A stretch of 64,000 bases of DNA. It comes from an uncultured Verrucomicrobiota bacterium (GTDB lineage Bacteria > Verrucomicrobiota > Kiritimatiellia > RFP12 > UBA3636). Below, in pieces: positions 3,584-55,862 of the stretch. The stretch covers positions 53,618-117,617 of the forward strand of contig CASEAR010000041.1 of assembly GCA_949285835.1 (NCBI GenBank). Direction: 5' to 3'. How positions within the stretch are numbered: position 1 is the first letter of the stretch; every line of letters begins with the position of its first letter. The translations under genes and the position numbers were made by a program. The notes under the pieces were generated by a model. The model ran no database searches. It saw nothing but the letters and a program-made list of their open reading frames with translations, and was not told the DNA's origin.

Positions 3584-3587
3584 ATAA

Positions 3588-4187
3588 GTGCATTTTACCG
3601 AGGATTTCCTGAGGGAATATGAACGCAGACGTTCCGGTGCGTCCGGGACGTCTGTTTCATTTCATTCTGGAAGCCGGTATTCAAATGGCGGATTGATCCG
3701 TGTTCTCGGTGTGGACACGTCGTTACGCAGCACCGGCATCGGCGTAGTCGAATGTGTGGGGAATGATTTTGTCCTTGTAAAGTGCGGCACAATTAGATGC
3801 CAGAGATATATGACATTGTCGGAATGCCTGAAGAAACTCGCCGGCGGAATAAACGATGTTGTCGATGAATGCCGTCCGGATGAAGTGGCTGTCGAAGGAA
3901 TATTCTGCTGCCGAAACCCTAAGACGGCAATTATACTAGGGCATGCTCGCGGCGTTGTTCTTCAGGTTTGTGCTTCCCGTGGTTTACCTGTTTACGAGTA
4001 CACGCCGCGTCGTGTCAAACTTGCTGTCACAGGTGTCGGTACGGCTGTGAAAGTCCAGATGCAGCGCATGGTGGCTTCTTCTTTGCGTATGGACGAAATT
4101 CCGCAAAATGATGCGGCAGATGCGTTGGCTATTGCCATTACGCATGTTCATGCACGAACCGGTCCCGGACTGGGTACAAGGATATAA
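3588..4187 (+). CDS. ruvC: Holliday junction resolvase RuvC. The true start is probably internal, near residue 35 of this ORF.
   Basis: [17 protein letters not shown] corresponds to the first catalytic Asp region. [12 protein letters not shown] is the C-terminal catalytic motif. The ORF is about 35 aa longer than typical RuvC. Confidence 0.8.
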
Positions 4188-25571: not shown

Positions 25572-26255
25572 CTGCGGTTAGATAAAACGTACGTATAATC
25601 TGTCGGATCTGTCGCCCCAAATCTGCAATCTGCGTAAACACGACTCTTTCCTCCGGGCGCCTCCGCTGCCGTACAAACAGGAAAGAACCCCGGACACCTG
25701 CGGCAGCAAATACATCTCTATAACTCAATGTTACTATAGCTACACTTCGATCAAGCGTCATAAACGAAACCAATCCAAGTTTTGACATGCGGCCCAAACC
25801 TAACCCGACAACTCCTTTTTTCCAGAAATTTAGTCTTCAGAAAAGAGGGACGTCAACAGTGCAATAGACAAAACCAAATGCCCATGGTCTGCAAATCTGC
25901 ACCTCCCGATAAACAAAACTGTACCTCACGCATTTTACGACACAGCATTTCTCGCTGGGACACGGAATTTCGGAACATCAAACAATATGCGCGTCCAAGA
26001 CACGAAGATAGTTTCTTACTGCCGGTTTTACAACACTGAGGAAGCTCCGCATTCCTCAAAATACCACACCCCTCCGAGGAGCGCCCATTATATACGAAAT
26101 CAAATCCATTTTGCAATGGTTCGCATCCCGACGCGCGCTTTCCGCTGCAGGGGACTGCAAGCAGCGTGCGCCGTTCCGAAACGAGGTCTGCCGCAAGAGG
26201 CAGTTATCCGCGCTGATTTCCTTCCGCAGGGGACTGCCGGAGCCGTTGTCCGGGT

Positions 26256-35451: not shown

Positions 35452-35452
35452 T

Positions 35453-37902: not shown

Positions 37903-39768
37903 TCAGCGTCCCCCCATGGAGAACGTCACCTTATGGCGCAGCTCTCCAGTTCCATCCGACTTGCGCTCGAACATAACAACCCGTACGCCCTCCAGCGGCG
38001 AATCCCACGGATTGAGCAGATCCCCCGCCTCGGCGACTTCCCACACCACATTCGGCGCATCCGCTTCAAGAGTCATCGTCAAGCCGTCCTGTGTCAGGGT
38101 GAGCACATTGCCGCGGACTTCCGCCGAAGCCCGCGTGACCATCTGCCATCGCACCACGTCCCCGGCTGCCAGCCCGCTCACATGGTCTTCCGTTACCAGT
38201 CGGCTTCTTCCCGGGAAATAGTAAACTCTCTGCGCATCGAACCCCAGCACGTCCCTCAAATCCACCTTTACGGACGGATCTGCTCCGTTGAATCCGGAGC
38301 ATTCAAGCGCCGCGCTCCCTTTTACTCTCTGGCGCATCCCGTTCACAACCATCTGGGAATGCCCGTTTACGCCGTAGCGGAAGACGTCCCACCTCGCGCC
38401 GTCCTGACTTCCGTTCCAGAGACTGAACCCCTTCTGTTCAAGTTTGTTGTAATCCTCCCCGCCCAGTTCCAGAGACCATCTCACACCTCCGGCCTCCAGC
38501 ACAAAAGACCCCGCATCCATATGCCCGTGCGATACTGACGGCGTGCCTCCCTTCACCGCCACGTACCATGCATCACGGTCTCCGCCGCTTCTCATCGCGG
38601 CGAACTCCGATTTGCCGCGCCCGTGGTAGTCGCGCATAAACTCCATACGCGGGCCGCCGCCCGCGGGGGACGCCTCCACAGGGGTGTCTCCGGCAGGAAG
38701 CAGCAGCAGCGCAGCAAGCCTGTCTGAAGCGAATCTGGCGGGATTTTCCTCAAGGGTTCGCCATTCGCAGCCGAAATAACCGGATCCTCTTCCTCCGAAC
38801 TTCTCCGGAAAGCGATCCGCGAACCACAGCAAGCCCGCCTCACACCTGCGCGAATCGTGGCTGTCCGCATAGTTGCAAAAACGCCCCCCGGGACCCGTGA
38901 CGGCCAGCATGTAGTCTGCAGAATCAGCGAAGCCCTCCATGCCGCTCAGACCGAAATCACTGCCGAACGCGGCCTCCAGCATCGAGATGAACACGATGTT
39001 GTACGTCGTTCCGTACGACCAGTACATCGGCCCCTCCGGATACACCCCGTCCGGCGCGTACCCCAGCATCGGCTTCCGTATATTGCTTATCGCGCGTTCA
39101 ATTACCTCGAACGCCTCTTCCGGATACTTATCCGCCAGGGCAATCGCCGCGGCAGAGACGCCGGTGTGGCAAACCTGCCCCCAGTTGTTGCCGGCCCGCA
39201 CCCACCATTGAGAGTCGTCTAGCGCGGTGGACAGCCCAAGTCGCCACAATGCCTCGGCGATTTTCTCCCGCGACTCCGGATCCAGATCGTTGTAAAGCCA
39301 GTCATAACCTACCGCCACGGCGAGCGACATCTCCGCAGTGTCCAGATAGTGCGATGGATTCCAGTCCGGGAAAGAACATACCGCAAGCAGCTCTGCCTTA
39401 GCTCTCTCGAGCGCTTCTGCATCCCCCCACACCAGCCACGCACCCGCAAGCGTCGTTATCCTGTGCAGCGCGCGCCTTGATACGGCAAGAATACGGCGCC
39501 CGATCTTCACCCGCTCCAGAACGGGTTCCTTCTGCAGCGCCGCGGCTTCCCTGCGCAGGGCTTCCGCGTAGGGAACAATATCGGCAGGAACGGTTATCCT
39601 GCCCGGTTCTGTCAGAATGATGCGCGGATGTCCGCTGCCAATGGAATCAAACGACTCTCGAAGACCCTTCGCATCCGGCACCGCCGCCGAAGCCCCGGCC
39701 GCCGTGCACGCCAGCCCGGCAGCGGCCATTCTCATCCCAGCACACCCGTGCATCGGCAAAACCCTCAA
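37903..39768 (-). CDS. Secreted heparinase II/III-like polysaccharide lyase (alginate-lyase-like alpha/alpha N-domain plus Hepar_II_III C-domain)
   Basis: Signal-like N-terminus. SVSHGHMDAGSFVLEAGGVRWSLELGGEDY matches the heparinase II/III H.H.D.gsf motif. 621 aa. Confidence 0.55.
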   Translation of the reverse strand: MRVLPMHGCAGMRMAAAGLACTAAGASAAVPDAKGLRESFDSIGSGHPRIILTEPGRITVPADIVPYAEALRREAAALQKEPVLERVKIGRRILAVSRRALHRITTLAGAWLVWGDAEALERAKAELLAVCSFPDWNPSHYLDTAEMSLAVAVGYDWLYNDLDPESREKIAEALWRLGLSTALDDSQWWVRAGNNWGQVCHTGVSAAAIALADKYPEEAFEVIERAISNIRKPMLGYAPDGVYPEGPMYWSYGTTYNIVFISMLEAAFGSDFGLSGMEGFADSADYMLAVTGPGGRFCNYADSHDSRRCEAGLLWFADRFPEKFGGRGSGYFGCEWRTLEENPARFASDRLAALLLLPAGDTPVEASPAGGGPRMEFMRDYHGRGKSEFAAMRSGGDRDAWYVAVKGGTPSVSHGHMDAGSFVLEAGGVRWSLELGGEDYNKLEQKGFSLWNGSQDGARWDVFRYGVNGHSQMVVNGMRQRVKGSAALECSGFNGADPSVKVDLRDVLGFDAQRVYYFPGRSRLVTEDHVSGLAAGDVVRWQMVTRASAEVRGNVLTLTQDGLTMTLEADAPNVVWEVAEAGDLLNPWDSPLEGVRVVMFERKSDGTGELRHKVTFSMGGR

Positions 39769-40412
39769 AGCGTTTTGATGACTATGGATTCCATCACGGC
39801 ATAACCGGCGTCATTTGGATGAACCCCGTCGCCGGAATACTTGCCCATTCCTCCGTTTTCGTTCGCAAGCGCCGAATAATAGTCCACATACGGAATCCCG
39901 TTATTTTCAGCATACTCTTTGATCAGGCCGTTAAGCCGTACTATGCGTTTTGACACGTCTTTTATTTCTTTGCGCCATGGGAACCCGTCGGAAGGCGTTA
40001 CGGAGCAGAGCCTCACGCCGATCCCGTTCGCCTTAGCCAATTCACACATTGAGATGATATTGTTCATTACAGCCTCGTGTGAGATAGGACCGCGGTTTTC
40101 CGCCATATCATTGATACCTGCGAGAATGACAACCGTTTCGGGTTTAAGATTTATGACGTCCTGCCTGAATCGGCAGAGCATCTCCGCAGTCGTCTGTCCG
40201 CTTATCCCGCGGCCGACGAACCCGTTTGTGTTGAAAAATGCCGACCTTCTGCCGGGCCATGCGTCAGTAATTGAATCGCCGTAAAAAACAACCGCACCCG
40301 GCTTGACATTTCCATTTGCCGCGGCATACCGCTGATTTCCAGCCCAGTCTGCAAAAACAATCGTACCGCACATGGCTGCCGCAAACAGCGCCGCCGTCTT
40401 TATCGTATTCAT
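39765..40412 (-). CDS. SGNH/GDSL-family hydrolase (carbohydrate esterase-like)
   Basis: ATG at 40412 (verified). Signal peptide MNTIKTAALFAAAMCGTIVFA. GDSIT block I, and GDGVHPN (DxxH block V). Its stop overlaps the start of the lyase gene. Confidence 0.7.
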   Translation of the reverse strand: MNTIKTAALFAAAMCGTIVFADWAGNQRYAAANGNVKPGAVVFYGDSITDAWPGRRSAFFNTNGFVGRGISGQTTAEMLCRFRQDVINLKPETVVILAGINDMAENRGPISHEAVMNNIISMCELAKANGIGVRLCSVTPSDGFPWRKEIKDVSKRIVRLNGLIKEYAENNGIPYVDYYSALANENGGMGKYSGDGVHPNDAGYAVMESIVIKTL

Positions 40413-40498
40413 AGTTTTATCCTCCAGCCGGTACTTTTTAATTCCAGAAAGACTGCCGTCCGGCAAACAGTCAAACCCGCGCTGAACAGGGCAAGAGC

Positions 40499-42106
40499 TC
40501 AGCTCTTCCCGCCGCCGCAGTCCGCGCTGAACAGAAACGCGGCGGAAATTATAAACGTAAGATTCCAAACAATCGCCGGAATTTGAAGACTGAAATCTCC
40601 GAGCGAATGCACCGCGAAAACAACAACGCACATAAGCGCCGCAAGCGGAGTAGACTTTGCAAGATGAGACGGCGGTTTCCCTGGCTCGTGCCTGTGGCGG
40701 CGGCGGCCATGCCGGTGACGGGCATGGCCGGATTGCCTCTCCGGGGGATCCGCGTCCGCCGCATTGGGCAAATCCGCCCTCGCGGGGACATCCGCACCGT
40801 CCCCTGAAACGCTCACACACACCGCCTGAGACCGGGAAAGTCCATACACGAGGACCGCCCCGAACGCCAAGAAAATCACGAAGCCCGCTGCGCCGTACTC
40901 CTCAAGCAGCTGCGTCCAGTCACTGTGCACTTCGTACAGATGATAGTAGTCGTTGCGCAGCCTCGGGAATACGAGCGGATCAAGCGACCCGTCGTCCGTC
41001 GGAGCAAATTCCGCCCACCTGTTGGAGTGCTGCCCCGGCCCTATGCCCCAAACGGGATTGCTTCTCCATGCTCTGAGCGCGGAAGCGATATACGTCCCGC
41101 GGTCGAACCTGTACCAGAACGTATCGCTCACGCGCTCCCACAGCCGCCCGTCGCCGGCCTTTGAAGCCGCCTCATACTCTGCGTAAAGAGGATGCTCCTT
41201 TATGCGCCTTGACAGACTGTTGTCCGTCAGAAACAGCGCCGCGCACGCCGCAAGCACCGCGCACGCCGAGATCACAGCGCACACCGCCCTCACGCGCGGA
41301 GGACGCCCCCTGTGCGCAAATGTCAACCATGCCGCAAGTATCCCCGAGAACAAAGATGCAAGCCCGCCCCGCGAAAGCGTAAGAAAAGCCGGCCAGAACA
41401 AAAATGCCGCCGCCAGCGCAGTCAGCGCCTTGCCTGTACGCCCTCCCCCGGGCGTGAATGCATTCGCCAGAAATACGGCAATGCCCGCATTCATGAACGC
41501 GCATAGATGATTCGGGCAGTAGAAGACGCCTATTGCCCTGCCCTTGTAGTGCATGGAAAGTTCCACCGGCGCCCAGAGGATGTACGAATCGCCGGTAATA
41601 TAGTGGTTCAGGAGCGCATATGCCGCCACCAGCACCACGTTTGCGCAGAAAGCCCGGAGAAGGAATTCCAGCCTCCCCCTCGTGCCGCAAACTGCAAGCG
41701 ACACCGAAAGAAGAAACGGCGTAAGAAACAGCAGAACATTCCTCTCCGCCTCCATCCGCACCATTTCCCTGCCGGGTGCGGACGGGAAAAGCACCCTCAC
41801 GCCCGCATACGCCAGAAACAGCGCCATGCACAGCAGCACGGCCGCCCCTGTGCGAGGCACGCGCAGATGCGGATAAATCGGAAACGCGGAACCAAGCGAA
41901 GACGCCCTCAGCGTCTCAGCAATGAGCCCCAGCCCCGAAAACAAAGCCGCGCCGAAAACCAGCACTGACATGGGCCAGAACCACCACATCTCCCACGACC
42001 CGAAAAACCATGGACTCACTATCACGTTCAACGATGCGCAGGCAAACCCCAGAACATACATCAAACGCGAAAACCCGAACTTCACATTCCCGGCATCTTC
42101 CGTCAT
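40499..42106 (-). CDS. O-antigen ligase/Wzy_C-family polytopic membrane protein with a His/Arg-rich insertion
   Basis: Many TM segments. TLSRGGLASLFSGILAAW and NPVWGIGPGQ resemble Wzy_C motifs. A low-complexity HARHRHGRRRHRHEP segment precedes the last TM helices. Its start overlaps the mutL stop. Confidence 0.45.
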   Translation of the reverse strand: MTEDAGNVKFGFSRLMYVLGFACASLNVIVSPWFFGSWEMWWFWPMSVLVFGAALFSGLGLIAETLRASSLGSAFPIYPHLRVPRTGAAVLLCMALFLAYAGVRVLFPSAPGREMVRMEAERNVLLFLTPFLLSVSLAVCGTRGRLEFLLRAFCANVVLVAAYALLNHYITGDSYILWAPVELSMHYKGRAIGVFYCPNHLCAFMNAGIAVFLANAFTPGGGRTGKALTALAAAFLFWPAFLTLSRGGLASLFSGILAAWLTFAHRGRPPRVRAVCAVISACAVLAACAALFLTDNSLSRRIKEHPLYAEYEAASKAGDGRLWERVSDTFWYRFDRGTYIASALRAWRSNPVWGIGPGQHSNRWAEFAPTDDGSLDPLVFPRLRNDYYHLYEVHSDWTQLLEEYGAAGFVIFLAFGAVLVYGLSRSQAVCVSVSGDGADVPARADLPNAADADPPERQSGHARHRHGRRRHRHEPGKPPSHLAKSTPLAALMCVVVFAVHSLGDFSLQIPAIVWNLTFIISAAFLFSADCGGGKS

Positions 42107-43947
42107 GTCTCCACCCGTCCTCCCGGCGCGCCCCCTCCGGAACGGCCGAACCTGCGATCCAAATCCCTGTTGGATGTAAAAATCATGGTAGGTCCTCCCG
42201 ATGGCCTGGCATACGGCATGTCACACCTCGCCAAAGCCTCCACAACCATGCGCAGCTCCCCGTCAGAAAGCCTGTAAGCGCCTCTGGAAGCAGCCTTCCC
42301 GGCCGCCATCGCCGCCGCGCGTTCCCGCCACAAATCCCTGTGGCGCGTCCCCGCATTTATCACAGCCGCCGCGGTCTCTGCAAGGATTTCGCGGCAGTCC
42401 GTCCCGCTTACGGCGTCCGGCACGGCATCCACGGAAAATACCCCGTTGCCGAACGGCTCAATCCCGAACCCCATCCCCTTCAGCTGCGGAAGGACTTTCA
42501 GCACCGCCGCCGCGTCCGCCGGTTTCAACTCCACGGTCTGAGGCATCAGGAGGCCCTGGGAATGCGGCTCTCCGCCTGCAGACTCCGCAAGCAGCCGCTC
42601 GTACACGACCCGCTCCCGGGCCGCCGCCGGATCCAGCACCGTGTACCCGCCGCTGGTCTCCATAAGCACATAACCGCTGGAAAGCCTGCCTATAATCCGG
42701 AACTCTGACCACGGAGCCGTCGCAGGGAGTCCGTCTCCCGCCACCGAGAACTTCGCTTCTTCCCCTCTCTCGCCGGCAGAGCCGCCTCCGGACAAGACGT
42801 CGCCGTACAAGACATCGCCGGACGGCAGCTCCGGCTGTGAAAAAACGACTGGCGGAGGCACCGGCGGCGGTGTGCCTGACGGCAGAACACATGCGCCTGC
42901 ACGCTCCGTGTTCCAATCAGTCACAGGCGGCGGCTCCGCTTCCCTCATCCCGACGGGGCCGCCCCGGAGCGCACCGCGTATTACCTCCGTTACCGCCTGA
43001 CGTATCTCAGAATTGTTCCGGAACCGCACTTCGCGCTTCGCGGGATGCACGTTCACATCCACAAAATCCGGCGGCGTTTCAATGTACAGGTAAATCTGGG
43101 GCCTGCGCCCCTCCCCCAGCCCCGGATAAGCCTCGTTAAGCGCCGCATACACAGACGGAGCAGCGGCCGGACGCCCGTTTACGAAAATGTACTGCCCGGC
43201 ACGGTCCGGACGCGTCCACCCGGGCTCTCCGGCAAACCCGTGCACGCGCACGCGCCCGCACGAGCCGTCAAACGGGATCATGTGTGCCAGATCTTCTTCG
43301 CCCGCCAGATCCCTGAGCCTGTCCGCTAGCGATTCCGCCGCCGGCAGTCTGTACGCCTCCTCCCCGTCGCATTTCAGCACAAATGCAATCCGGGGATACG
43401 CCGCGGCGTGTACGTACACCATATTCTTGATGTGAGCCTGTTCCGTCTGAAACGTCTTCAGAAAACTTCGTCTGGCGGGCACGTTGAAAAACAGGTCGCG
43501 CACCAGTATTTCCGTGCCCGGAGGGCATCCGCAGTCCCTCACATCGATAAGCCTGCCGCCGGAGATCTCCACCTCCGTGCCGGTTTCATCGTTTTTGGTG
43601 CGCGTCCTCAGGAAAAATCGTGACACTGAGGAAATCGACGCCAGCGCTTCGCCCCGGAAACCCAGAGTGCCCACCTTCTCTATGTCCTCAACTTCGCGTA
43701 TTTTGCTCGTGGCGTGCCTCTCCGGAGCCATCATCGCGTCGTCGCGATTCATACCGCATCCATTGTCAGACACCGCAATCAGCTTTCGCCCACCAGCCGT
43801 AACCGACACCTCAACCCGCGTCGCCCCGGCATCCACCGAATTCTCCATCAGCTCCTTGACGACGGCGGCCGGGCGCTCCACCACCTCGCCTGCGGCTATC
43901 TTATTGGCCACATTCGGTGAGAGCATCATGATTACAGAACCGGGCAT
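42103..43947 (-). CDS. mutL: DNA mismatch repair protein MutL
   Basis: The N-terminal ATPase motif NKIAAGEVVERPAAVVKELMENSVDAGAT is diagnostic. 614 aa. Confidence 0.9.
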   Translation of the reverse strand: MPGSVIMMLSPNVANKIAAGEVVERPAAVVKELMENSVDAGATRVEVSVTAGGRKLIAVSDNGCGMNRDDAMMAPERHATSKIREVEDIEKVGTLGFRGEALASISSVSRFFLRTRTKNDETGTEVEISGGRLIDVRDCGCPPGTEILVRDLFFNVPARRSFLKTFQTEQAHIKNMVYVHAAAYPRIAFVLKCDGEEAYRLPAAESLADRLRDLAGEEDLAHMIPFDGSCGRVRVHGFAGEPGWTRPDRAGQYIFVNGRPAAAPSVYAALNEAYPGLGEGRRPQIYLYIETPPDFVDVNVHPAKREVRFRNNSEIRQAVTEVIRGALRGGPVGMREAEPPPVTDWNTERAGACVLPSGTPPPVPPPVVFSQPELPSGDVLYGDVLSGGGSAGERGEEAKFSVAGDGLPATAPWSEFRIIGRLSSGYVLMETSGGYTVLDPAAARERVVYERLLAESAGGEPHSQGLLMPQTVELKPADAAAVLKVLPQLKGMGFGIEPFGNGVFSVDAVPDAVSGTDCREILAETAAAVINAGTRHRDLWRERAAAMAAGKAASRGAYRLSDGELRMVVEALARCDMPYARPSGGPTMIFTSNRDLDRRFGRSGGGAPGGRVET

Positions 43948-44021
43948 ATCCAGAAACTCCGCAGATTGTCAAATCCCGCGCCTTACAGCAGGCGCACACC
44001 CGGGATTTTCCTATACCGCGG

Positions 44022-45074
44022 TCATTTTTTCAACGACAAATTATCTGCGCCGCGCATTGAAGCGTTTCCATCGAAAAGAAATTTCGCTTCAGTGACCCAT
44101 TCCGCAGCGCCGCCCGGCTCCACCTCAATGTCGCAGAACATCTCCGGGCACACAACTCTCCCGTCCGCATACACCCTGAATTCCGACGGAGGCAGATTTG
44201 TGCTTATGCGGATTCCTGCGCCGGATTCCCGTTCAGTCACGATGAAGCTGTTGTGCTCCGGCACATCGCCGAAACCTTTGAAGCTGGCCCAGAACGTGCG
44301 CTTCAGCTTCCCGCCGGAAAAGCCCAGCGTTCCGCCTCGCAAAATCCCCGCTGCCGGAAGCACGGACGGCTTGTCGAGCGCCGGAACGAACGGCACCGAC
44401 ACCTCGTACCCGGAGCCGGCAGGCCGCCCGTCGATGCATATGAAATTATGCGAGTAATGTCTCGTTGATATGGGCCGGTTCCCCGTGTTCTCAAGCCGCC
44501 TCCATATCCTGAGCCCGCTCCCGTCGCCCGTCAGAGATATTTTTCGTTCAAGCCTGTACCCGAACGAACCGTCGGGCATTTTCAGCTCGTGTACAGCCTC
44601 CGCCTCCGCCGACCCCGTCTGCCTGAAGCTCCATACGCCCCTGTCGCGTACTTCATACCTGCGGTTGAAAAAATACTCCTTTTCATCCGGACGCACGAGT
44701 ATGCCGGCCCCGATCTTCATGAACAAACCGCCCGGCGCAGCCTCCCTGAATCCCGGAGGCTCGGTATCCAGGTCAAACTCCTCTGCCGGACCGGCGACGT
44801 TGTCGTTGCCGTACGGATCATGCATTCCCGGATGGTGCCTCGTGAAAAAAGAATGCCCGTGCGATTCGATGTTGTCGATGATGCCGGACAAGTCGAAGCG
44901 GGTCCCCCTGTAAAATCCGTTCTCCGGATCAGGCCGGTATACGGTGGCCGCCGCCCCGCCGCATGACAGGCGGACGCACGGCCACGCCGCCTCCTCTCCG
45001 GCAGAGCGCGCCTGAAACACAGCCGCGGACAGAAACAGCGCCGCCGCGGCCGCCAGCCTTCCAGCCGTTCTCAT
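44022..45074 (-). CDS. Secreted hypothetical protein (no recognised domain)
   Basis: Signal peptide MRTAGRLAAAAALFLSAAVFQA. 350 aa. Translationally coupled to the upstream 781-aa ORF. Confidence 0.4.
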   Translation of the reverse strand: MRTAGRLAAAAALFLSAAVFQARSAGEEAAWPCVRLSCGGAAATVYRPDPENGFYRGTRFDLSGIIDNIESHGHSFFTRHHPGMHDPYGNDNVAGPAEEFDLDTEPPGFREAAPGGLFMKIGAGILVRPDEKEYFFNRRYEVRDRGVWSFRQTGSAEAEAVHELKMPDGSFGYRLERKISLTGDGSGLRIWRRLENTGNRPISTRHYSHNFICIDGRPAGSGYEVSVPFVPALDKPSVLPAAGILRGGTLGFSGGKLKRTFWASFKGFGDVPEHNSFIVTERESGAGIRISTNLPPSEFRVYADGRVVCPEMFCDIEVEPGGAAEWVTEAKFLFDGNASMRGADNLSLKK

Positions 45075-47416
45075 TCGGCGCTCCGCCGCGGCATAAGCTC
45101 AAACACATCAAGCGGAACCGCGTAATCCACGGAGGACAGCGCGGGAACTCTGACGGTTGGCGCGCCTTCAAGCGGAGAGACGCCCAGAAAAACGCTCCTG
45201 CGGCGTTCCGGGCTCTCCGCCAGAACGACAGGCTCCGCGTCAAACGCAGTCGGGTTCGTGACCCGCAGAGTCACCCCCCCGCCAGACACGCCGGTCACCT
45301 GTGCAAACACATGGTCGAAAACCGTCACTTCCAGAGTTTCAGTATCCAGATATATCCCGGGCACCTCGGACACCGTATTCAGGAGAGCGGACTCCGCCCA
45401 GGTGGATCCGCCGAAAATCTCCCCTACTTTTATCTCCTCAAAAGGCAGTCCCCTGACCTCCCAGTCGCTCAAATTTACGCGCTCATTCACCCATCCCGGC
45501 GGCATCACAGGCCAGCGTTTACCCCTGCGTGTGTCGCATATCGGACGGTCCCGTCTTGAAACAAACTGCGGAAGGCTGTGCGCTATATCGCGTATCAGTT
45601 CAAGCCACTTCCGGTCGCCGGCCGCGCGCCACAGCTTGAAAAGCGAAGACCCCGAAAGAGAACATATTCCCGGAGCCGCGTGCTTGTTCTGAACATTGGC
45701 CCACACAGTGCCGCAGGAAAGCATGTCCATTCTGCCGAAGGTGCTTTCCGGAGGGAACCTGAAATCGTATGAAGTCACCCAGGTACAGAAATACGCGGCG
45801 GCCCTCGCCGCCGCATCCGTCCACTCCTGCGACCCGCCGGTCTCTTCCATGAGCACGACAAACGACTCCAGAAGCGCCGCGGAAGACTCGCTGTCCACAT
45901 TCTGGAATATGTCCCCCGGGCCGCCGTTGGTAACCCCTCTGGACAAAAAATTGTCCCTGTACCGCCGAGCGGCGGCGCACGCTGTGCGCATATACTCCTC
46001 TTCCCCGAAATACCGGGCGGCCAGGGCCAGCCCCGCCGGAGCGAGGGCGGCGGCGCAGCTGCCGCCGAGCACCACCCCGCCCGTCTCCGAATCAGCGTAA
46101 TGCGGCAGGTGCCCCGCCTCCTTCCAGCACTTCACGAATGCGCCGCACAATCCACGGGCCAGCCTTATCCACGAAGGAGACGGCTCCCTGTGCGGCGCCG
46201 CCGTCTTGAGGTACAGCAGCGTCTTCATCAGGAAATACAGCGTGTCTGCGCTGTAACGCATGTAGCAGCGTTTTCCATCTCCCTGCCACGCCCCGGCCGC
46301 CGAACTGAAACACCCGCGCACGAAGCCCGACGGCGTCACCGCCTTCTCCGCAATGAAATCCCAGACCCTGAGGGCCCGTGCCCGACTTGCTGCGCCGCCC
46401 CTCGTGAGCATGGGCCACGCCGTGTTCGGCCCGCCCACCCATCCGGTCTGCCAGTCCTGAGACGGGCATTCGCGCATCCCCACCGACCAGTACCCGTATT
46501 CCTCCACCCAGTTCTCGCGGTTGTGCTTGTCCTCAACAAGCTCAAACGCATAAGAAAACGGCAGGATTTCCTTTTCCCTTCTCCGCCCCAGCTCCTTGCG
46601 GGCCTGCGCAAACCGGGCGTAAAGATCCTCAGGAGTGTGCGCTTCGAACACGTGAACCGCCACGGGGAACGAAACCGTGTCGCCGCATTCCAGACGCGCC
46701 CCCCGGTCCGGCAAATCTCCCTGCCAGTTGTATTTGCCGCCTTCGCGCACGCCGGGGCACTTCACAAGAATACGCGCCCGCGTGCGCTGATCATTCTCTT
46801 CCACGCACAAACCTGTCTCTCCGGCTTCGCTCCTCTGCTCCGACATCACCAGCAGGCCCGCGGCATACTCCGGAAACAGCACTCCCGCGCACGGCGTGGA
46901 ACAGTCTCCGGCCAGCACCTGTATCCGGCTGCGCCCCTCCCCATACTCCAGATGCGGCGCACTGGTGATGGTGATCCAATTCTCCGGATCCGGCGCAGGG
47001 CTGTCATCGAAGCGCTTCTTCCTGTCGCGAACAGGAAACCTGTTGCCGCCGTACACGCACGCAGGCATGAAAACCCAGTCGTCCCTGCTCCAGCGCCCGA
47101 AGTCCAGAGCCACACCCACCGAAGCAAAATCCACGCTCCCGGAAACAGCCGTATACTTGAAATCTATCCGGACGCCGCCCGACGCGGTGCGCGAATACAA
47201 CGCCTCTGCCTCAAGCTCCGCCCCGCCGAGCTCCATCCGCGTGACGCCCCCCGCCGGCGAATACTCTTCCTCCGCCGGGACTTTGCCGGAATGCCTCACT
47301 GCGTATTTCATCATCCCCGCACACAGCTTTTCCAACTGCTCCCGGAGTTCCTCCCCAGCCTCCGGCCGCTTTATCCTGCACATGTCTGAAAACCCCCGTT
47401 GGTCACATCTTTTCAA
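45071..47416 (-). CDS. Large cytoplasmic hypothetical protein, possibly an (alpha/alpha)6-barrel glycosidase-like enzyme
   Basis: 781 aa with no signal peptide. Trp/aromatic-rich repeats (WVGGPNTAW, GAWQGDGKRCYMRY) suggest a six-hairpin glycosidase fold. Weak, inference only. Confidence 0.35.
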   Translation of the reverse strand: MKRCDQRGFSDMCRIKRPEAGEELREQLEKLCAGMMKYAVRHSGKVPAEEEYSPAGGVTRMELGGAELEAEALYSRTASGGVRIDFKYTAVSGSVDFASVGVALDFGRWSRDDWVFMPACVYGGNRFPVRDRKKRFDDSPAPDPENWITITSAPHLEYGEGRSRIQVLAGDCSTPCAGVLFPEYAAGLLVMSEQRSEAGETGLCVEENDQRTRARILVKCPGVREGGKYNWQGDLPDRGARLECGDTVSFPVAVHVFEAHTPEDLYARFAQARKELGRRREKEILPFSYAFELVEDKHNRENWVEEYGYWSVGMRECPSQDWQTGWVGGPNTAWPMLTRGGAASRARALRVWDFIAEKAVTPSGFVRGCFSSAAGAWQGDGKRCYMRYSADTLYFLMKTLLYLKTAAPHREPSPSWIRLARGLCGAFVKCWKEAGHLPHYADSETGGVVLGGSCAAALAPAGLALAARYFGEEEYMRTACAAARRYRDNFLSRGVTNGGPGDIFQNVDSESSAALLESFVVLMEETGGSQEWTDAAARAAAYFCTWVTSYDFRFPPESTFGRMDMLSCGTVWANVQNKHAAPGICSLSGSSLFKLWRAAGDRKWLELIRDIAHSLPQFVSRRDRPICDTRRGKRWPVMPPGWVNERVNLSDWEVRGLPFEEIKVGEIFGGSTWAESALLNTVSEVPGIYLDTETLEVTVFDHVFAQVTGVSGGGVTLRVTNPTAFDAEPVVLAESPERRRSVFLGVSPLEGAPTVRVPALSSVDYAVPLDVFELMPRRSAE

Positions 47417-48896
47417 ACTCGATCATGGCTATACCGGCGCACGGCATGTCAAAATCCACCGTCAGCACATCTCCGCTGCGCTTTTCGCAATATGAGCGCG
47501 TTTCGCGCAGTTCGTTCACGGCACGGAGCTCTTCGAGCAGTTCGCGGCGGACATACGCCGGAGAACCCGCCTGCCGCCAGTCGTGAAGAATGTTGTTTTC
47601 GCTGTCTGAGACCACCGTCATGCGCTTCACGCGCATATCCGAAGGCATCTCCACCCGCATACGCCCGGACGCCTGCAGGTCAGGCTCCGGGGAAGGATCA
47701 AAACTGTATGCCAGCAGACGCACGTCTCCGGGCGAGTCCGCCGTGCATACCGCGCCGGACATTCCATCCGCCGGACACCCTTCCACCGGGACTCTGCGCA
47801 TCCCCAGCCTGCCGAGAAGGCTGTGGGCATGATAACCCGGCTTCTTCAGTCCGTGAAGGCTCAGAAGACCGTAGTTGCCGCAGAACTCCGCGCCGCTGTA
47901 CCCCACCTGATCGTATATGTCGCTGAGGCACCAGTACGCGAACTTGTCTCCCAGCTGAGATACTTCGGACATTGTCTTGACGATAAACGCCGCCTCGTTG
48001 GCCGATTCCCTTATGCCGTCGCACGGCCACCATGTCCTTCCCCATTCGTTCCAGTGCATTTCCCCGCGGAACCCGGCGCTGTCCAGCACCTTGCGCACAC
48101 CGCGCACGACTCCGCGCGCAAAATGCGGAGAGCCGGGCTCCCTCTCGGAATCAGGCCCGTCGAACGGACAAACCGGCCGCCCGGAACAGTCCTCGTTGTA
48201 CACATGGGAGATCATGTAATCCGGCTCCAGGCCGCTGCGCCTCCCGAATTCCAGAAACTCTTCAATCCAGCCCGCCCGCGCGGTTGAAGGCCCTCCCACG
48301 CGAAGTTCCGGATCGACGTCCTTTATCGCCCCTGCGGTTTCCAGATAAAGCCGGAAGAAGTCTTCCTGCGTTCCTTCCAGGAAGCCGTTGCGCAGGTTCG
48401 GTTCATTCCAAATCTCGAAATACATGCCACGTACCGTCTCCGCCCCGAAATGATCCTCCAGATGGCGGACCAGCCCCCCTGCAAGCCTGCGCCACGCCGC
48501 CCAGTCCGACGGCAGGCTTATCCTCGCTTTCGTCTCGAACGTCGTCCTCTCTCCGGCCGCAAGCGCGCCCGGCATAAAGCACGTGGTTATCATGGGCAGG
48601 ACTCCAATGTCCGTCAGACGCTCCGTTATGTATGTGTCTATCTGCCAGTTGGGCACATCCCGCACATGTTCGCCGCTGCGCCATTTGACCGGATCCCGCG
48701 TGAGCACACGCATCTCGTCATCCAGCATTCCCACTGCTCTTACGTGGCGCGCGCCAAGTTCATCATGCGCAATTTTCAGCTGTTCAAGCATATCGGCGCG
48801 AACCATCCACCGGAATTGATCCACATTTACAAGCCCTTCCCACGTGTGCCGGAAAAGCTCCGGTTCAGCGCCCAAAACAGGTCTCAGCACTGTCAT
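47403..48896 (-). CDS. Glycoside hydrolase family 39-like (clan GH-A)
   Basis: GMYFEIWNEPNL is the GH39 acid/base motif. About 500 aa. No signal peptide recognised. Confidence 0.55.
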   Translation of the reverse strand: MTVLRPVLGAEPELFRHTWEGLVNVDQFRWMVRADMLEQLKIAHDELGARHVRAVGMLDDEMRVLTRDPVKWRSGEHVRDVPNWQIDTYITERLTDIGVLPMITTCFMPGALAAGERTTFETKARISLPSDWAAWRRLAGGLVRHLEDHFGAETVRGMYFEIWNEPNLRNGFLEGTQEDFFRLYLETAGAIKDVDPELRVGGPSTARAGWIEEFLEFGRRSGLEPDYMISHVYNEDCSGRPVCPFDGPDSEREPGSPHFARGVVRGVRKVLDSAGFRGEMHWNEWGRTWWPCDGIRESANEAAFIVKTMSEVSQLGDKFAYWCLSDIYDQVGYSGAEFCGNYGLLSLHGLKKPGYHAHSLLGRLGMRRVPVEGCPADGMSGAVCTADSPGDVRLLAYSFDPSPEPDLQASGRMRVEMPSDMRVKRMTVVSDSENNILHDWRQAGSPAYVRRELLEELRAVNELRETRSYCEKRSGDVLTVDFDMPCAGIAMIEFEKM

Positions 48897-48911
48897 ATAT
48901 TCAAACCTCCG

Positions 48912-51900
48912 TTAAAAATCCTGCCGCTCAAGCCTTACTACCCATACGGGTTCTCCGGACGAAATCTCGATAACCCCGTCTTTCCCCACTGTCCCCGACC
49001 GGATTTCCTTCATGTGCCAGTCAAGGAACGTGAAGCGCATCCCTGCCGCAGACGGCGCCCTTATCCGGCCGGAAACGCGCGCCGTGAGCACGGGCCATCC
49101 GCCGCGTACGGATTTGCCGTCATGGATGGACGCCCCTCCCCTGTCCAGATAGTGGACGAAACCGGAATTGAAACTCGTGCATACCAGGCTGAGCATCGCA
49201 GATCTCGTCTGAGAAAGCGGCATGCCGTCCTCCGACACCAGCCCGAACGCCAGATATCTGTCCCCCTCCAAATCTTCAGGATAAGGCATCTCTGCAGGTA
49301 CGCTGATGCTCACGTCCGAGAGCTCTACACCGGCTGACGGGAATTCCAGTGCGTCGCCAAAACGCGACATGAACCCCGTAAACGCCGCCCCGCCGGGCGC
49401 ATCGAAGCTCAGCCCGCCGCGGCGCGTGTCAAAGCAGATTTCCCCGGTCGGACGTATCACATCAGGCTTGGACTCGGCGTCGTAACGCACGACCGGCCCG
49501 GACACCTCGTCGTCTTCGCGCGCCGGGTCAATCACAAGCCGCACACCGTACCTGTAAGCCGTCGGGAGCATGTTCATGCCGGTCTTACCGTATGAACCCG
49601 CATAATCCATGCTGTCGGGATCGTAGAGGCTGCGCCTGCCGTAAATGAACGTCGTAGGCTCCGGCGCAGGCTTGTACAGCCCGCCTCGGAATGCGTATGC
49701 CGCGGCCCGCATCGCAGACGCCTGAACCTCGTCGTACGTGAAATGATACCCCTGCGGATGATTTCCCGTCGTGTAGTCCATCGGCTTGTCGAACGGACGC
49801 TCCGCCGTGGCAATGTCGCCCACCCCGCCCCAGTAGTGCCAGCACAAGGCGTCCCAGTCCTGTATGCAGGCTAGAGCCAGTATGCGCCACGGGAATTCGG
49901 CCCTGTATTTGGCCGGCTGCTGAATCTGCGTCTCGTATGCCATAAACGGCTTGCCCGGCATTTTGTTGTGCTCCAGCCACGGCACGTCATGGCAGATTCT
50001 GGGATACTCTTCCAGCCCCGACATCCACGGGTATCTGGCGTTGAACCTCGGATCGTTGTTGCGCGGGGATCCGTTTATGTACGCATCATGTACCGAAACG
50101 TCGGCATTCTGGTGCAGCCACGCGCTCTGTATCTCATACCCGATCCCCGTATCCAGCACAGTCGGAGCAAGCCGGCACGCCCTGCCCATCGTCTCAAGCG
50201 CCGCTTCCAGCCGCTTGTAGTGCGCCACATGAAGTGAGCAGAAAAACTCCAGCACATCCGCGCCGCGGTGAAAGTTGAAGTCGTCGCGCGAATAGCCGGA
50301 CTCTGCCGCGGAATCAGCCTCCTTGAGCTGTTTTTCCGCCTGTGCGTCCATCACTCCGAACACCGTCTTCTGCACCCCGCGCAAAGGCAGTATGCCCACG
50401 GAGCCCGTCTCCAGACTCTCGCCCGGCAGAAGCCCGCACCATTTGCGGGCAAGCTTTTCGTCCGTCCCGTATTTCCCTCTCAGATACTCCGTCCACTTCT
50501 CCTGAAGAGTACGCTGGAAATAATCCGGCAGTTTCCTGAACATGCCGCCTGTCATCTTGCTCATCCACCAGTCTTCGTTCGTGAGCTCGAACGCCGCATA
50601 CAGCGGATCATCCCCCACGCGGAACCCGGTATAATGATTGTAGTGATCCGCTATTTCACGCATTCCGCGGATCATCACGGCTTCCGTTCTCGGATCCCAC
50701 TTCGCAACAACCCGTGCCAGATTGTCCTTGTTGCCCTCCATCTGCGACATCGCCTCCGCCCACTCGCCGGCGGAATCCGGTTCGTCTATGATCCCCACGT
50801 CCGAAGCGTAAGGGTAATTCTGCGCCATCCCCGGAAGCCATATGCGGAAGCTCCTTTTTTTCAGCTGCCACAGAAAATAATCCTTGAGGTCGTCGGAGCT
50901 TCCGTCTCCGGGAACGTAGTCCCTGCGCGCAGGCCGCCAGAAACGCACCAGGTTGAACCCCAGCCCGTCCAGCCTTTCCGCAATAAGTTCGTTCTCGCGG
51001 CGTCCCTGCGCTATGCGGCGCGAGCGCTCTTCCTCCGTCTCCTCTCGTCCTTTCGGAGCAGACGGCACATTCGGAAAGGACTCGATCACGCCCCAGAACC
51101 TTACCCGCTTCCCTCCGGTTTGAAGATGCCCTTCACCGGACACCGTCACATACTCGGATTCCGGAACCGCTTCCGGATCCTTCGGCTCCGGAAGCCCGGA
51201 ACCGAAGGATACACCCGAAATAAACGCGCACGCCGCCGCCGTCCACGCCGACTGCTCCTGCCAGCCGGTACCGCCGTTCAGAACGGCATCCGCCGCCGGT
51301 GTGCCGTTTGTCACGCCATGATAAACAAACTGCTCGCTCACAAGCAGCTCGCCGCCTGGAGGCGGCCCCCCGGACGTGATAAACCAGTCGGAAAGCGAAG
51401 CGCCGGACACTGATATCCCGTTAAGCGACGTTACTCTGTACCTGTAAACGGAAGCTTCCGAGACATCAGCGTCTTCGTAAAACGTGTCTTTCAGACCCGT
51501 AGCAATCATGTTGAAAATGCCGTCCTTGCCATCCTGACGTTCGATTATGTAGGCTTCCGCGTCCGTTCCTACCGTCCACCGGATGCGCAGCGCCCCCGAC
51601 GCCGTCTCCGACACCGAGACATCGGACGGCTCGCCTGGAATCACCGACTCCGGCAGGACAATCTCTCCGAATACGTCCTGAAGGGAAGAACAGATGCGGA
51701 TCTCGTCAAAACCCGCAGCCTCGCTTCCGGAAACCTCCATGCTCATCGTTCCCGAGGATATCGACACGCTCTCCGGCGAAGTCACCGACACCCTCTGCAG
51801 CGCGTTGCTCTCCAGCAGCTCCATCGAAATCCCAGCGGCAGAAAAAAACATATTCGAACAGCCCGCCTGATCCAGCACCCAGAGCACCGCCTCAGTCGGA

Positions 51901-52463
51901 GTCTCCTCGTTCCCGACGCCGTGATTTGAAAGCCGCGTCACATACAGCAGCGGGAACGTATCCCCGTCTGCGCGCATCTGTGCGGTCATTTCGCTCCCGG
52001 CGCCATTCAAAAACACCTGCGCCCTTCCCCTGTCCCTGCCGTACGTATCCGCCACTATTTCCAGAGGTCCTACCGCCAGCCAGGACTTGTTGTTGTATCC
52101 ATTCGGATAATTCCTCCAGTGTACGAAACTGATCCACACATCCGCGCCGTCCGGGATCCCGGCAGACAGCGCATAGCCGCGCTCCTCCACTGTGTTATTC
52201 GAAACAAGCGCGCCGCCGCCGAGACCTACAGCGTCCGTGTATCCGTACAGAATTTTCGGAGATACTACGTCCAGGGCAGGCTCCCACGAAACTCCGTCCG
52301 GTTCCCATATCCCGAAAGCGGCATATGACAGCTCCCCCTCCGGATAGTCGAACGGCTCATACAGATACACCTCCGCCCGGCACAAAACCGATGGAACAAG
52401 AAGAAGAAGAGACAATAAAACGCGAACTACATCGTATTTTCCGCAGCTGGCCGATCTGCTCAT
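48912..52463 (-). CDS. Large secreted multidomain carbohydrate-active protein (N-terminal domain, fibronectin-III-like domain, clan GH-A catalytic TIM barrel)
   Basis: ATG at 52463 (verified), then signal peptide MSRSASCGKYDVVRVLLSLLLLVPSVLC. Fibronectin-III-like PSDVSVSETASGALRIRWTVGTDAEAYIIERQ. AFELTNEDWW (NE acid/base-like) and FMAYETQ (nucleophile-like). Confidence 0.5.
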   Translation of the reverse strand: MSRSASCGKYDVVRVLLSLLLLVPSVLCRAEVYLYEPFDYPEGELSYAAFGIWEPDGVSWEPALDVVSPKILYGYTDAVGLGGGALVSNNTVEERGYALSAGIPDGADVWISFVHWRNYPNGYNNKSWLAVGPLEIVADTYGRDRGRAQVFLNGAGSEMTAQMRADGDTFPLLYVTRLSNHGVGNEETPTEAVLWVLDQAGCSNMFFSAAGISMELLESNALQRVSVTSPESVSISSGTMSMEVSGSEAAGFDEIRICSSLQDVFGEIVLPESVIPGEPSDVSVSETASGALRIRWTVGTDAEAYIIERQDGKDGIFNMIATGLKDTFYEDADVSEASVYRYRVTSLNGISVSGASLSDWFITSGGPPPGGELLVSEQFVYHGVTNGTPAADAVLNGGTGWQEQSAWTAAACAFISGVSFGSGLPEPKDPEAVPESEYVTVSGEGHLQTGGKRVRFWGVIESFPNVPSAPKGREETEEERSRRIAQGRRENELIAERLDGLGFNLVRFWRPARRDYVPGDGSSDDLKDYFLWQLKKRSFRIWLPGMAQNYPYASDVGIIDEPDSAGEWAEAMSQMEGNKDNLARVVAKWDPRTEAVMIRGMREIADHYNHYTGFRVGDDPLYAAFELTNEDWWMSKMTGGMFRKLPDYFQRTLQEKWTEYLRGKYGTDEKLARKWCGLLPGESLETGSVGILPLRGVQKTVFGVMDAQAEKQLKEADSAAESGYSRDDFNFHRGADVLEFFCSLHVAHYKRLEAALETMGRACRLAPTVLDTGIGYEIQSAWLHQNADVSVHDAYINGSPRNNDPRFNARYPWMSGLEEYPRICHDVPWLEHNKMPGKPFMAYETQIQQPAKYRAEFPWRILALACIQDWDALCWHYWGGVGDIATAERPFDKPMDYTTGNHPQGYHFTYDEVQASAMRAAAYAFRGGLYKPAPEPTTFIYGRRSLYDPDSMDYAGSYGKTGMNMLPTAYRYGVRLVIDPAREDDEVSGPVVRYDAESKPDVIRPTGEICFDTRRGGLSFDAPGGAAFTGFMSRFGDALEFPSAGVELSDVSISVPAEMPYPEDLEGDRYLAFGLVSEDGMPLSQTRSAMLSLVCTSFNSGFVHYLDRGGASIHDGKSVRGGWPVLTARVSGRIRAPSAAGMRFTFLDWHMKEIRSGTVGKDGVIEISSGEPVWVVRLERQDF

Positions 52464-52547
52464 ACCGAAAAGCCCCCCGGTCAAGAACCCTACATTCACA
52501 TGGAGCCGTACGCCGGCCCCCAGACTGACTGCACGGATGATATATTT

Positions 52548-52588
52548 AACTTTTCGATAAGTCAATAAAAAAACTTTTCGATAAGTCA
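52548..52588. promoter_or_regulatory. Two perfect 17-nt direct repeats (AACTTTTCGATAAGTCA) between the LacI-family gene and the 1225-aa hydrolase; candidate operator/promoter element
   Basis: Seen directly at 52548-52564 and 52572-52588, spaced 24 nt. Half of each resembles a LacI half-site (CGATAAGTCA / TGACTTATCG). Confidence 0.35.
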
Positions 52589-52607: not shown

Positions 52608-53669
52608 TCAGCGTGCTTTCCCGGTGTTCGGCTTCGCGGCGGCCTTCTTCTTTTCGTGAGCCGGCCCAAGCGTGTCGCCTTCGATAAAATCGCATGGAAG
52701 CACACGTGACGGCAGCTCGCGGGAAGGATCTTCCACCAGCGCCGTTATCCCCTCCGCGGCGGCAGTTCCCATCTCGTATTCGGGCAGAAGCATTGTCGCC
52801 ATCGTGTGAGTGATGTCGTCCGCAGTGACGTCGCTGAATACGGCTATTGAAAAGTCGCCCGGCACATTCAGGCCGGCGGATTCGGCCGCCCTCAGATACA
52901 CGCGTCCGACGTCGCCGGTGTATCCCAGAACGGCGGTGGGCGCATCCGCGCGCCTGAGCTCCTTCGACAGCACCGCGCAGATTTCCCTGTGCGGCATATC
53001 CTCGTATCGCGCAAGCCTGGGTTCAAGACCGGCCTCCTTCATCGCATCCGAATACCCGCCGAATCTGTCGTATGTACTGAAATGAAGGAAATCGTGGAAC
53101 ATCGAAAACACGATTCTGCGGTGCCCGAGTGAAATCAGGCGGCGAGTAATCCAGACGGCGGAGTCGTGTTCATTCGGATATACGCAGTTGTTGCCGTGTT
53201 TCGAGTTTATCCAGTAGGCCGGTATTTTGTGCTGCCGGATAAGCTCCTCAAACCGCTCCGGAATTTCCGCCTGATAGTTGATGATGAACCCGTCGCACAC
53301 AAGCTCCCGCAGCAGATACGGCGCGCTTGCGGGATCCGACAGTTTTTCATCCGGCAGTTTGCTTATCATCAGGTGTATGCCGCGGCGCGCCAGACCGTCG
53401 TGCACGCCGTCGAGAACCGCCTCCGGCATCAGGCTTCTAAACCTCACCGTACTTTGTATAAGCGTCACGGAGTTAAACCTGCCCGTAACCGTGGCTCTGG
53501 CGGCGGCGTTCGGGATATACCCCATGTCAAACGCCGCCTGCCGGATAACCGCCGCTTTCAAAGGGTTCACCCGGGTATTGCCTCCAGTGCCGCTTATTGC
53601 GGCTGCAACCGTCGCCCTCGAGACTCCGAGCCGCTTGGCCAAAACTGCCAGTGTCATTCCATTGCCCAT
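52608..53669 (-). CDS. LacI-family transcriptional regulator
   Basis: N-terminal TLAVLAKRLGVSRATVAAAISG helix-turn-helix and IRQAAFDMGYIPNAAARA (LacI hinge), then a periplasmic-binding-protein-like domain. Confidence 0.75.
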   Translation of the reverse strand: MGNGMTLAVLAKRLGVSRATVAAAISGTGGNTRVNPLKAAVIRQAAFDMGYIPNAAARATVTGRFNSVTLIQSTVRFRSLMPEAVLDGVHDGLARRGIHLMISKLPDEKLSDPASAPYLLRELVCDGFIINYQAEIPERFEELIRQHKIPAYWINSKHGNNCVYPNEHDSAVWITRRLISLGHRRIVFSMFHDFLHFSTYDRFGGYSDAMKEAGLEPRLARYEDMPHREICAVLSKELRRADAPTAVLGYTGDVGRVYLRAAESAGLNVPGDFSIAVFSDVTADDITHTMATMLLPEYEMGTAAAEGITALVEDPSRELPSRVLPCDFIEGDTLGPAHEKKKAAAKPNTGKAR

Positions 53670-55695: not shown

Positions 55696-55862
55696 CTCAT
55701 CCCGCCTTCGTGCTCATTGTATTTATCCTGTACCGCAATGCTCCGGTATGTTACGATATGACTTAACGAGTAATCAACAAAAAGCTTTTCCACGGCGCTC
55801 CCGCTGCGCATGCCCGCTGGACAGTGCGCAGGTCAGGCGAACGCCACGGCAGACGAGATTTT

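Follow-up and report, generated by a model that had tools for sequence, protein, structure and literature searches.

In a 64,000-nt stretch of contig CASEAR010000041.1 from an uncultured Verrucomicrobiota bacterium (hereafter the window), eight consecutive minus-strand open reading frames (ORFs), running from 52463 to 37903, place the mismatch-repair gene mutL and a gene for a Wzy-like membrane protein among genes for carbohydrate-active enzymes (CAZymes). A preliminary description of this DNA had taken the chain for a single glycan-degradation operon with mutL embedded in it. Our analysis indicates a different organization. The locus is an ordinary mosaic of a LacI-fronted CAZyme module, a mutL/Wzy-like dyad and a gene pair for an esterase and a PL35 polysaccharide lyase, and we consider it probable that these are three adjacent, transcription-compatible units, rather than one glycan operon including mutL, and that mutL has no role in glycan breakdown. 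Module A (52.6-44.0 kb) would comprise the genes of a fibronectin type III (FN3)/GH-A-like fusion protein, a GH39 enzyme, a 770-aa protein and a 350-aa protein, driven by a LacI-repressed promoter and ended by a hairpin. Module B (43.9-40.5 kb) would be an old housekeeping pair, mutL and the gene of a Wzy_C-like envelope-glycan protein, already adjacent before the CAZyme genes arrived, and module C (40.4-37.9 kb) would encode a secreted SGNH esterase and a PL35 uronate lyase. On this reading, this lineage has gathered CAZyme genes to either side of the mutL dyad, with some read-through across the module borders possible, as in the Escherichia coli amiB-mutL-miaA-hfq superoperon.

All eight ORFs are present on the minus strand, with the order, sizes and short junctions that had been described. 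Computing junction lengths from the most likely start codons, we found 15 nt between the stop of the FN3/GH-A-like gene at 48912 and the GH39 start at 48896, 19 nt between the GH39 stop at 47403 and the ATG of the 770-aa protein at 47383, and a 4-nt ATGA overlap of the 770-aa stop (45071) with the 350-aa start (45074). An alternative TTG start of the 770-aa gene at 47416 would yield a 781-aa form with a 14-nt overlap with GH39; the ATG at 47383 is the start used by database entry P0001. Then follow 74 nt from the 350-aa stop at 44022 to the mutL start at 43947, a second 4-nt ATGA overlap of the mutL stop (42103) with the Wzy-like start (42106), 86 nt from the Wzy-like stop at 40499 to the SGNH start at 40412, and 11 nt from the SGNH stop at 39765 to the lyase start at 39753. 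The only two junctions within the chain that exceed 20 nt, those of 74 and 86 nt, are thus the exact borders of the mutL/Wzy-like dyad. The length of the chain itself is not beyond expectation. About 17 of the 22 genes between 26 and 64 kb lie on the minus strand, a bias from which long same-strand runs are to be expected, and GC skew is negative across this region, so that the minus strand is probably the leading strand. The G+C content at third codon positions (GC3) is 0.71 for mutL, 0.69 for the Wzy-like gene and 0.70-0.74 for the CAZyme genes, and the esterase gene alone deviates, at 0.57; we therefore rejected a foreign origin of mutL or of the CAZyme genes.

Comparison with related loci separated the dyad from the CAZyme genes. 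The nearest MutL among genome representatives, from a locus labeled as uncultured Verrucomicrobia (L001), is 51% identical to that of the window. Its gene is followed after 18 nt by the gene of a 569-aa Wzy-like protein that is 42% identical to its counterpart in the window, including a His-rich loop. Next come rpoN, an amidohydrolase gene, a glycosidase-like ORF, htpX and a Mur-ligase-like gene; the one exception to the housekeeping character of these neighbors is the glycosidase-like ORF (761 aa, ~3 kb downstream). Scanning metagenomes with the Wzy-like alignment yielded 47 loci, and in the closest of these with upstream DNA, L005 and L007, mutL again lies directly upstream of the Wzy-like gene, with HAD-like, surA-like, rsmA-like and galU-like genes as the other neighbors. 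Wzy-like relatives at ~30% identity adjoin metallophosphoesterase, UDP-glucose dehydrogenase or epimerase genes.

Conversely, the CAZyme genes occur elsewhere with no mutL nearby. Locus L052 carries an RHGA-like beta-helix gene together with relatives of the GH-A-like (76%), 770-aa (71%) and 350-aa (55%) genes, L055 holds the 770-aa and 350-aa pair, and in L053 the 770-aa gene sits amid GH2, GH43, RHGA-like, fucosidase and GH39 (57%) genes. L058 combines a LacI gene, a small ORF, an RHGA-like gene and the 770-aa gene with a 350-aa gene on the other strand. The pairing of the 770-aa and 350-aa genes is kept in L052, L055 and L056, the last being a sister strain described below, and only in L058 do the two lie on opposite strands. 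The synteny comparison proposed along with the preliminary description, which asked whether mutL is conserved inside the glycan cluster, thus came out negative for the three relatives at ~50% MutL identity, which keep mutL with the Wzy-like gene and, in the flanks available, amid housekeeping genes instead. Because synteny separates both groups, mutL and the Wzy-like gene would represent an old, lineage-specific dyad and the CAZyme genes later arrivals.

The proposed borders coincide with candidate regulatory elements. A stem-loop fills most of the 74-nt gap before mutL (43959..44021, minus strand), starting one base after the stop codon of the 350-aa gene; its predicted folding energy is -31.3 kcal/mol (z -2.9), and 1 of 200 shuffled sequences folds as well. 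The 86-nt gap between the Wzy-like and SGNH genes is unstructured. Two candidate sigma-70 promoters for mutL were rejected, one (TTGACA, 43972-43967) for lack of an acceptable -10 element and the other (TTGAAA/GAAAAT, 44033-44005) as a chance-level match. At the head of module A lies the gene of a LacI-family regulator (52608..53669, minus strand; Peripla_BP_3 1e-17, Peripla_BP_1 4e-7 and a weak LacI helix-turn-helix match at 8e-4), which likely acts as the repressor of the module; relatives L056 and L058 also have a LacI-type gene in this place. Between this gene and the first CAZyme gene, a promoter-like site on the minus strand (TTGACT, 17 nt, TATCAT; 52565-52537) matches the sigma-70 consensus at 10 of 12 positions, the best match in the region. 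It is overlapped by two identical, CG-centered 14-bp near-palindromes, ACTTATCGAAAAGT, at 52549-52562 and 52573-52586, which are spaced 24 bp apart and are the only two copies in the 64 kb, with a total match count not above shuffled expectation. Since this is the layout expected of a LacI-type repressed promoter, we infer such a promoter here, with the ACTTATCGAAAAGT pair as candidate operators.

Several observations weigh against the three-module reading. The hairpin before mutL has no clear U-tract, and promoter-like sites occur at chance frequency (7 found versus 6.3 expected from shuffled sequence) in a search that used the sigma-70 consensus, the consensus for this phylum being uncertain. 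Conservation of the dyad rests on three relatives (L001, L005 and L007) at ~50% MutL identity, and two further Wzy-like relatives of similar identity, L030 and L032, have valS and a sugar kinase gene in place of mutL.

These points leave some room for the view that the whole chain is one co-regulated operon after all, in which LacI-controlled transcription continues past mutL and the Wzy-like gene into the genes of the esterase and the lyase, tuning mismatch-repair capacity or envelope glycan assembly to glycan availability. All junctions measure at most 86 nt, 4-nt overlaps are among them, we detected no convincing intrinsic terminator of the U-tract type, and the arrangement is identical in a second strain (L056). 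Both flanks could also share a substrate, given the PL35 lyase and esterase on one side and the PL27-like fold and GH39 on the other. We nevertheless judge this reading unlikely, as the neighbors of the dyad differ completely in relatives, module A is found elsewhere without mutL, and the longer gaps and the hairpin fall at the module borders. Moreover, tight packing of unrelated genes is general in the window. The region 34048-37895 supplies an internal control: at the two junctions along argH, an AI-2E transporter gene and dinB, which are unrelated, we found 1 nt and a 23-nt overlap, so that short junctions in this genome do not show functional linkage. Likewise, ruvC lies at most ~110 nt downstream of the gene for electron transfer flavoprotein (ETF) alpha (2591-4187); dinB and ruvC, like mutL, serve DNA repair. 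Only 7 nt separate the stop codon of dinB from that of the convergent PL35 lyase gene. Nor would read-through imply a common function, as the mutL chain of E. coli K-12 illustrates: its junctions, along nnr-tsaE-amiB-mutL-miaA-hfq-hflX-hflK-hflC, measure -29, 18, 9, -8, 85, 75, 85 and 2 nt, and it has several internal promoters with read-through. This is almost the same pattern as in the window; the embedding of mutL in a glycan-degradation operon had been called unusual, but a position of mutL in a mixed chain is nothing out of the ordinary.

A second alternative concerns the dyad itself. The window's MutL (42103..43947, minus strand) scores 469 bits against a cutoff of 180 with TIGR00585 (3e-140) and has the N-terminal domains (PF13589, GHKL ATPase, 1e-11; PF01119, DNA_mis_repair, 2e-29) as well as the dimerization domain (PF08676, 1e-22), which aligns with Bacillus subtilis MutL (3gab, E 3e-14). 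MutL endonucleases bind zinc through the motifs DQHAx2Ex4E, ACR/SCK and CPHGRP (PMC10366529). At these positions the window's protein has DPAAARERVVYE, AGK and RPSGGP, placing it outside the endonuclease subclass. Alignment of its C-terminal domain (42103-42750) with 3gab pairs DQHA with DPAA, SCK with AGK and CPHGRP with RPSGGP, and in an alignment of the B. subtilis and Neisseria gonorrhoeae C-terminal domains the window's DPAAARE stands at DQHAxxE. Of the zinc-site motifs, neither the two His nor the two Cys nor the catalytic Arg is retained. The three dyad relatives show similar losses, and MutL of this clade is thus predicted to be non-nicking. Searching the literature for MutL proteins of Verrucomicrobia that lack the endonuclease motif, we found nothing specific.

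The second member of the dyad (40499..42106, minus strand) encodes a Wzy_C/O-antigen-ligase-like polytopic membrane protein, with a PF04932 match at residues 232-413 (5e-11; 43 bits versus a cutoff of 31.7) and hydrophobic segments in its translation. Judged by this match, its family serves the assembly of glycans, not their degradation. Its residues ~455-475 form a highly charged, His/Arg-rich loop, HARHRHGRRRHRHE, and a loop of the same character, HHHHTHKHHRKHRK, occurs in the L001 protein (2324-4033). The gene also contains an 18-nt tandem repeat (2.9 copies, 41235-41287).

From these features one might conclude that MutL and the Wzy-like protein work as partners in some role other than canonical mismatch repair, the CAZyme context being incidental. 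Four divergent genomes have the two genes side by side, and in the window the stop codon of the one overlaps the start codon of the other; MutL lacks the His, Cys, Cys, His zinc ligands in all four; and the Wzy-like protein has the conserved His/Arg-rich loop. We regard such a pair as very unlikely. MutL reaches a full equivalog score with intact ATPase and dimerization domains, and E. coli MutL, likewise devoid of endonuclease activity, works in mismatch repair. L030 and L032, although equally close in their Wzy-like proteins, have no mutL neighbor, a distant MutL relative (L002, 39% identity) has no adjoining Wzy-like gene, and the adjacency of unrelated housekeeping genes is often conserved. 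PADLOC detected no defense-system relationship for MutL, the Wzy-like protein, the esterase or the 350-aa protein. That the two proteins act together, be it as a membrane-associated, noncanonical MutL or in a lineage-specific repair pathway with another nicking partner, appears marginally more doubtful still. The degenerate MutL site also raises the question of which enzyme nicks DNA in this lineage, and a MutL clade without the endonuclease metal site is a side lead from this locus.

To examine the arrangement in other strains, we compared the window with two independent sister-strain assemblies, L056 (ENA ERZ16268265) and L057 (a Logan run), which are 99.4-99.6% identical to it. L056 matches the chain at 99.6% from window position 51240 to 38912, the end of the retrieved stretch, which falls within the lyase gene, and L057 matches it down to 46340, where its contig ends in the 770-aa gene. 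The same order in L056, and in L057 for the upstream part, shows that the chain order is no assembly accident. Both strains differ from the window in a 1.3-kb segment (51241..52554, minus strand) that encodes the signal peptide, an unknown domain and FN3 of the first CAZyme gene. There, between flanks that are 99.4-99.6% identical on both sides, they carry 5.3 kb (L056 4706-10002) encoding a second LacI, proteins of 361 and 139 aa, and an 842-aa Pect-lyase_RHGA_epim protein. The window's segment joins the GH-A-like gene in frame, inside its apparent ancestral signal peptide. Its GC3 of 0.68 is native-like, and its left breakpoint lies inside the second operator-like repeat. A tblastn search with the N-terminal module found no relatives in any fetched locus. 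The 1225-aa FN3/GH-A ORF is accordingly a strain-specific fusion, a local chimera being less likely.

An assembly artefact in this metagenome-assembled contig, affecting the arrangement or part of it, might be suspected from the sharp composition change at ~26 kb (GC3 0.38-0.53 to the left versus 0.62-0.74 to the right) and from the 1.3-kb segment, found only in this contig while two other assemblies have the 5.3-kb alternative, but it is extremely unlikely, since L056 and L057 reproduce the chain over the stretches given above, the in-frame join, native-like GC3 and breakpoint in an operator-like repeat fit real recombination, and the composition break is 12 kb outside the chain.

The preliminary annotations of the individual enzymes were mostly right. 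The calls of GH39, MutL, a Wzy_C-like protein, an SGNH esterase and a heparinase II/III-like lyase held, the last now sharpened to PL35; weak matches lie behind both the FN3 and the clan GH-A call on the 1225-aa ORF. In module A, the GH39 glycoside hydrolase (47403..48896, minus strand; PF01229 7e-62, 210 bits) has no signal peptide. It contains the motif EIWNEPN, and the bacterial beta-xylosidases 2bs9 and 1w91 match at E 1.5e-58, which makes these enzymes its closest relatives by sequence. The fusion protein (48912..52463, minus strand) is secreted and spans 1183 aa from the ATG at 52463, the maximal ORF being 1225 aa. Its FN3-like matches, at residues 273-373, are weak (E 4e-4 to 2e-3). The C-terminal 775 aa have relatives in at least 253 proteins of ~780 aa, a family whose source-named members are all called hypothetical, and neither this part nor the N-terminal module matched anything in Pfam (E<=10) or NCBIfam. 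Enzymes of clan GH-A are (beta/alpha)8 barrels whose acid/base Glu belongs to an NE motif of strand 4 and whose nucleophile Glu lies on strand 7. In the GH-A-like family, N230-E231 and E445 are invariant; its profile gave one short, weak match to GH5 mannanases, confined to the WELxNE strand (E 0.002), and an hhalign comparison of the family with the GH39 of the window yielded no signal. Membership of this family in clan GH-A is plausible but unproven.

The other two module A proteins were assigned by structure prediction. For the 770-aa protein (45071..47383, minus strand), the AlphaFold2 (AF2) model (predicted local distance difference test (pLDDT) 91.5, predicted template modeling score (pTM) 0.94) places an (alpha/alpha)6 barrel between two beta-sandwiches. 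Among PDB structures, Foldseek ranked the PL27 lyase 5no8 first (E 2e-12), ahead of enzymes from GH94, GH95, GH88, GH127 and GH76, and we class the protein as a member of an uncharacterized CAZyme-like family. Searches of Pfam (E<=10), NCBIfam and PDB sequences or profiles returned no match; the family itself comprises 534 clusters (50% identity) at E<=1e-30. The 350-aa protein (44022..45074, minus strand) has a signal peptide and, in its AF2 model (pLDDT 90.3), a galactose-mutarotase-like fold, with Foldseek matches to 3k25 and 3nre at E 5e-12 to 5e-11 and TM 0.55-0.65. His209 and Glu311 are invariant in its family, and it matched nothing in Pfam (E<=10), including Aldose_epim, in NCBIfam or in PDB sequence and profile searches. 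All-against-all BLASTP within the window found no paralogs of the unknown proteins. Whether these two proteins are carbohydrate-active had been named as decisive for a glycan-related cluster; both models show carbohydrate-enzyme folds, and on that basis the proteins are probably carbohydrate-active. The fusion protein and the 350-aa protein would be secreted, and GH39 and the (alpha/alpha)6 enzyme would be cytoplasmic. Together, the GH-A-like, 770-aa and 350-aa proteins form a conserved three-gene module of uncharacterized CAZyme-like families and may correspond to as many as three so far unclassified families of CAZymes.

Module C begins with the secreted SGNH/GDSL esterase (39765..40412, minus strand; PF13472 6e-26), whose translation holds the GDSITD and DGVHPN blocks and shows weak similarity to the acetylxylan esterase AxeA1. 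The GC3 of its gene (0.57 versus 0.69-0.74 for its neighbors) hints at a more recent acquisition. The adjoining lyase (37903..39753, minus strand; Hepar_II_III_C, PF07940, 2e-8) matches GAGase II (8khv) at E 1.5e-112 over 571 residues, GAGase VII (8khw) at 3e-97 and the PL35 chondroitinase 9o3q at E 3e-65. The NNW, YWxYG (Tyr-rich) and HxHMD motifs, which hold the PL35 catalytic residues Asn192, Tyr246 and His401 (PMC12088678), are conserved in the alignment, and by these matches the lyase is a true member of a uronate lyase family, PL35. The idea that the enzyme set targets an acetylated, uronic-acid-containing glycan is thus partly supported. The PL35 lyase, the adjoining esterase and the PL27-like fold fit a uronic-acid-containing and possibly acetylated substrate without pointing to one glycan in particular.

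Beyond the chain, further genes of the window were recorded. Upstream of the LacI gene lie genes for a beta-helix protein with a weak match to the GH141 insertion domain (53818-55695) and, on the plus strand, for a GH43 enzyme (55824-57311), both outside the chain's range. An 805-aa polytopic membrane protein (57396-59813, minus strand) has no Pfam match; judged by eye from the translation alone, its C-terminal part may adopt a methyltransferase fold of the spermidine-synthase type. At the other end, the window's composition changes from a GC content of 0.42-0.51 (GC3 0.38-0.53) over positions 1-26255 to 0.55-0.63 (GC3 0.62-0.74) over 26256-64000, with a 680-nt non-coding stretch (25572-26255) as the boundary. 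The low-GC left 26 kb includes core genes (ETF alpha, ETF beta and ruvC), and the break could reflect a chimeric metagenome-assembled genome contig or a large foreign block. Between 13300 and 25600 lies a low-GC surface-polysaccharide biosynthesis cluster with genes for a hexapeptide acyltransferase, two GT4 glycosyltransferases, a MatE-like flippase candidate and a polysaccharide pyruvyl transferase. Positions 22034-22690 hold a fragment of a DUF772 transposase. Neither tRNA genes nor Rfam families were found anywhere in the window.

Taken together, these findings call for caution: in compact, strand-biased genomes, neighboring genes need not work together even when they share a strand and are joined by short junctions. 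The reading of the chain as one glycan-degradation operon including mutL gives way before a dyad kept elsewhere, a CAZyme core found without mutL, and the gaps and hairpin at the borders. What is gained is a better annotation of the PL35 lyase, the 770-aa protein with its PL27-like fold and the 350-aa protein with its mutarotase fold.

Comparison with known systems places each part of the locus. The lyase resembles the PL35 glycosaminoglycan (GAG) lyases 8KHV and 8KHW in sequence and catalytic motifs but comes from another source organism, the characterized PL35 enzymes that PMC12088678 names being from Spirosoma and Bacteroides. PL27 is represented by the L-Rha-alpha-1,4-GlcA lyase BACCELL_00875 (5NO8), with which the 770-aa protein shares an N-terminal beta-sandwich and an (alpha/alpha)6 barrel (PMC8377490). 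However, the two are only 11% identical, with a TM-score of ~0.4 and no phmmer or profile match, and GH94, GH95, GH88, GH127 and GH76 folds score nearly as well. According to its model, the 770-aa protein is thus a fold relative of PL27, not a family member. Similarly, the 350-aa protein has the beta-sandwich fold in common with galactose mutarotases/aldose 1-epimerases (Slr1438, 3K25; E. coli YphB, 3NRE) but, unlike these, has a signal peptide and no Pfam Aldose_epim match. With its degenerate zinc site, the window's MutL resembles the non-nicking type of E. coli.

At the level of gene clusters, the window lacks the SusC/SusD pair that defines a Bacteroidota-type polysaccharide utilization locus. 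The absence of such transporters, noted at the outset, was borne out, with no TonB-dependent receptor or SusD match among the ORFs scanned across the window. A closer likeness is to the LacI/GntR-regulated CAZyme clusters without SusC/D of the Planctomycetes-Verrucomicrobia-Chlamydiae (PVC) group, known from Verrucomicrobiota, Planctomycetota and Kiritimatiellota, since here, too, hydrolases, lyases and esterases, both secreted and cytoplasmic, are clustered beside a LacI gene, and homologs carry the source labels Opitutales, Puniceicoccaceae, Terrimicrobiaceae, Lentisphaerae, Planctomycetota and Kiritimatiellaeota. The window differs from those clusters in that three of its families (GH-A-like, 770-aa and 350-aa) have no Pfam or NCBIfam model. 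Finally, the E. coli mutL chain, like that of the window, is a same-strand run of unrelated genes with overlaps or gaps below 90 nt that includes an envelope enzyme, AmiB. The partners of mutL differ, being amiB, miaA and hfq there and CAZyme genes and a Wzy-like gene here, and mutL is a classic case of a gene that sits in mixed chains.

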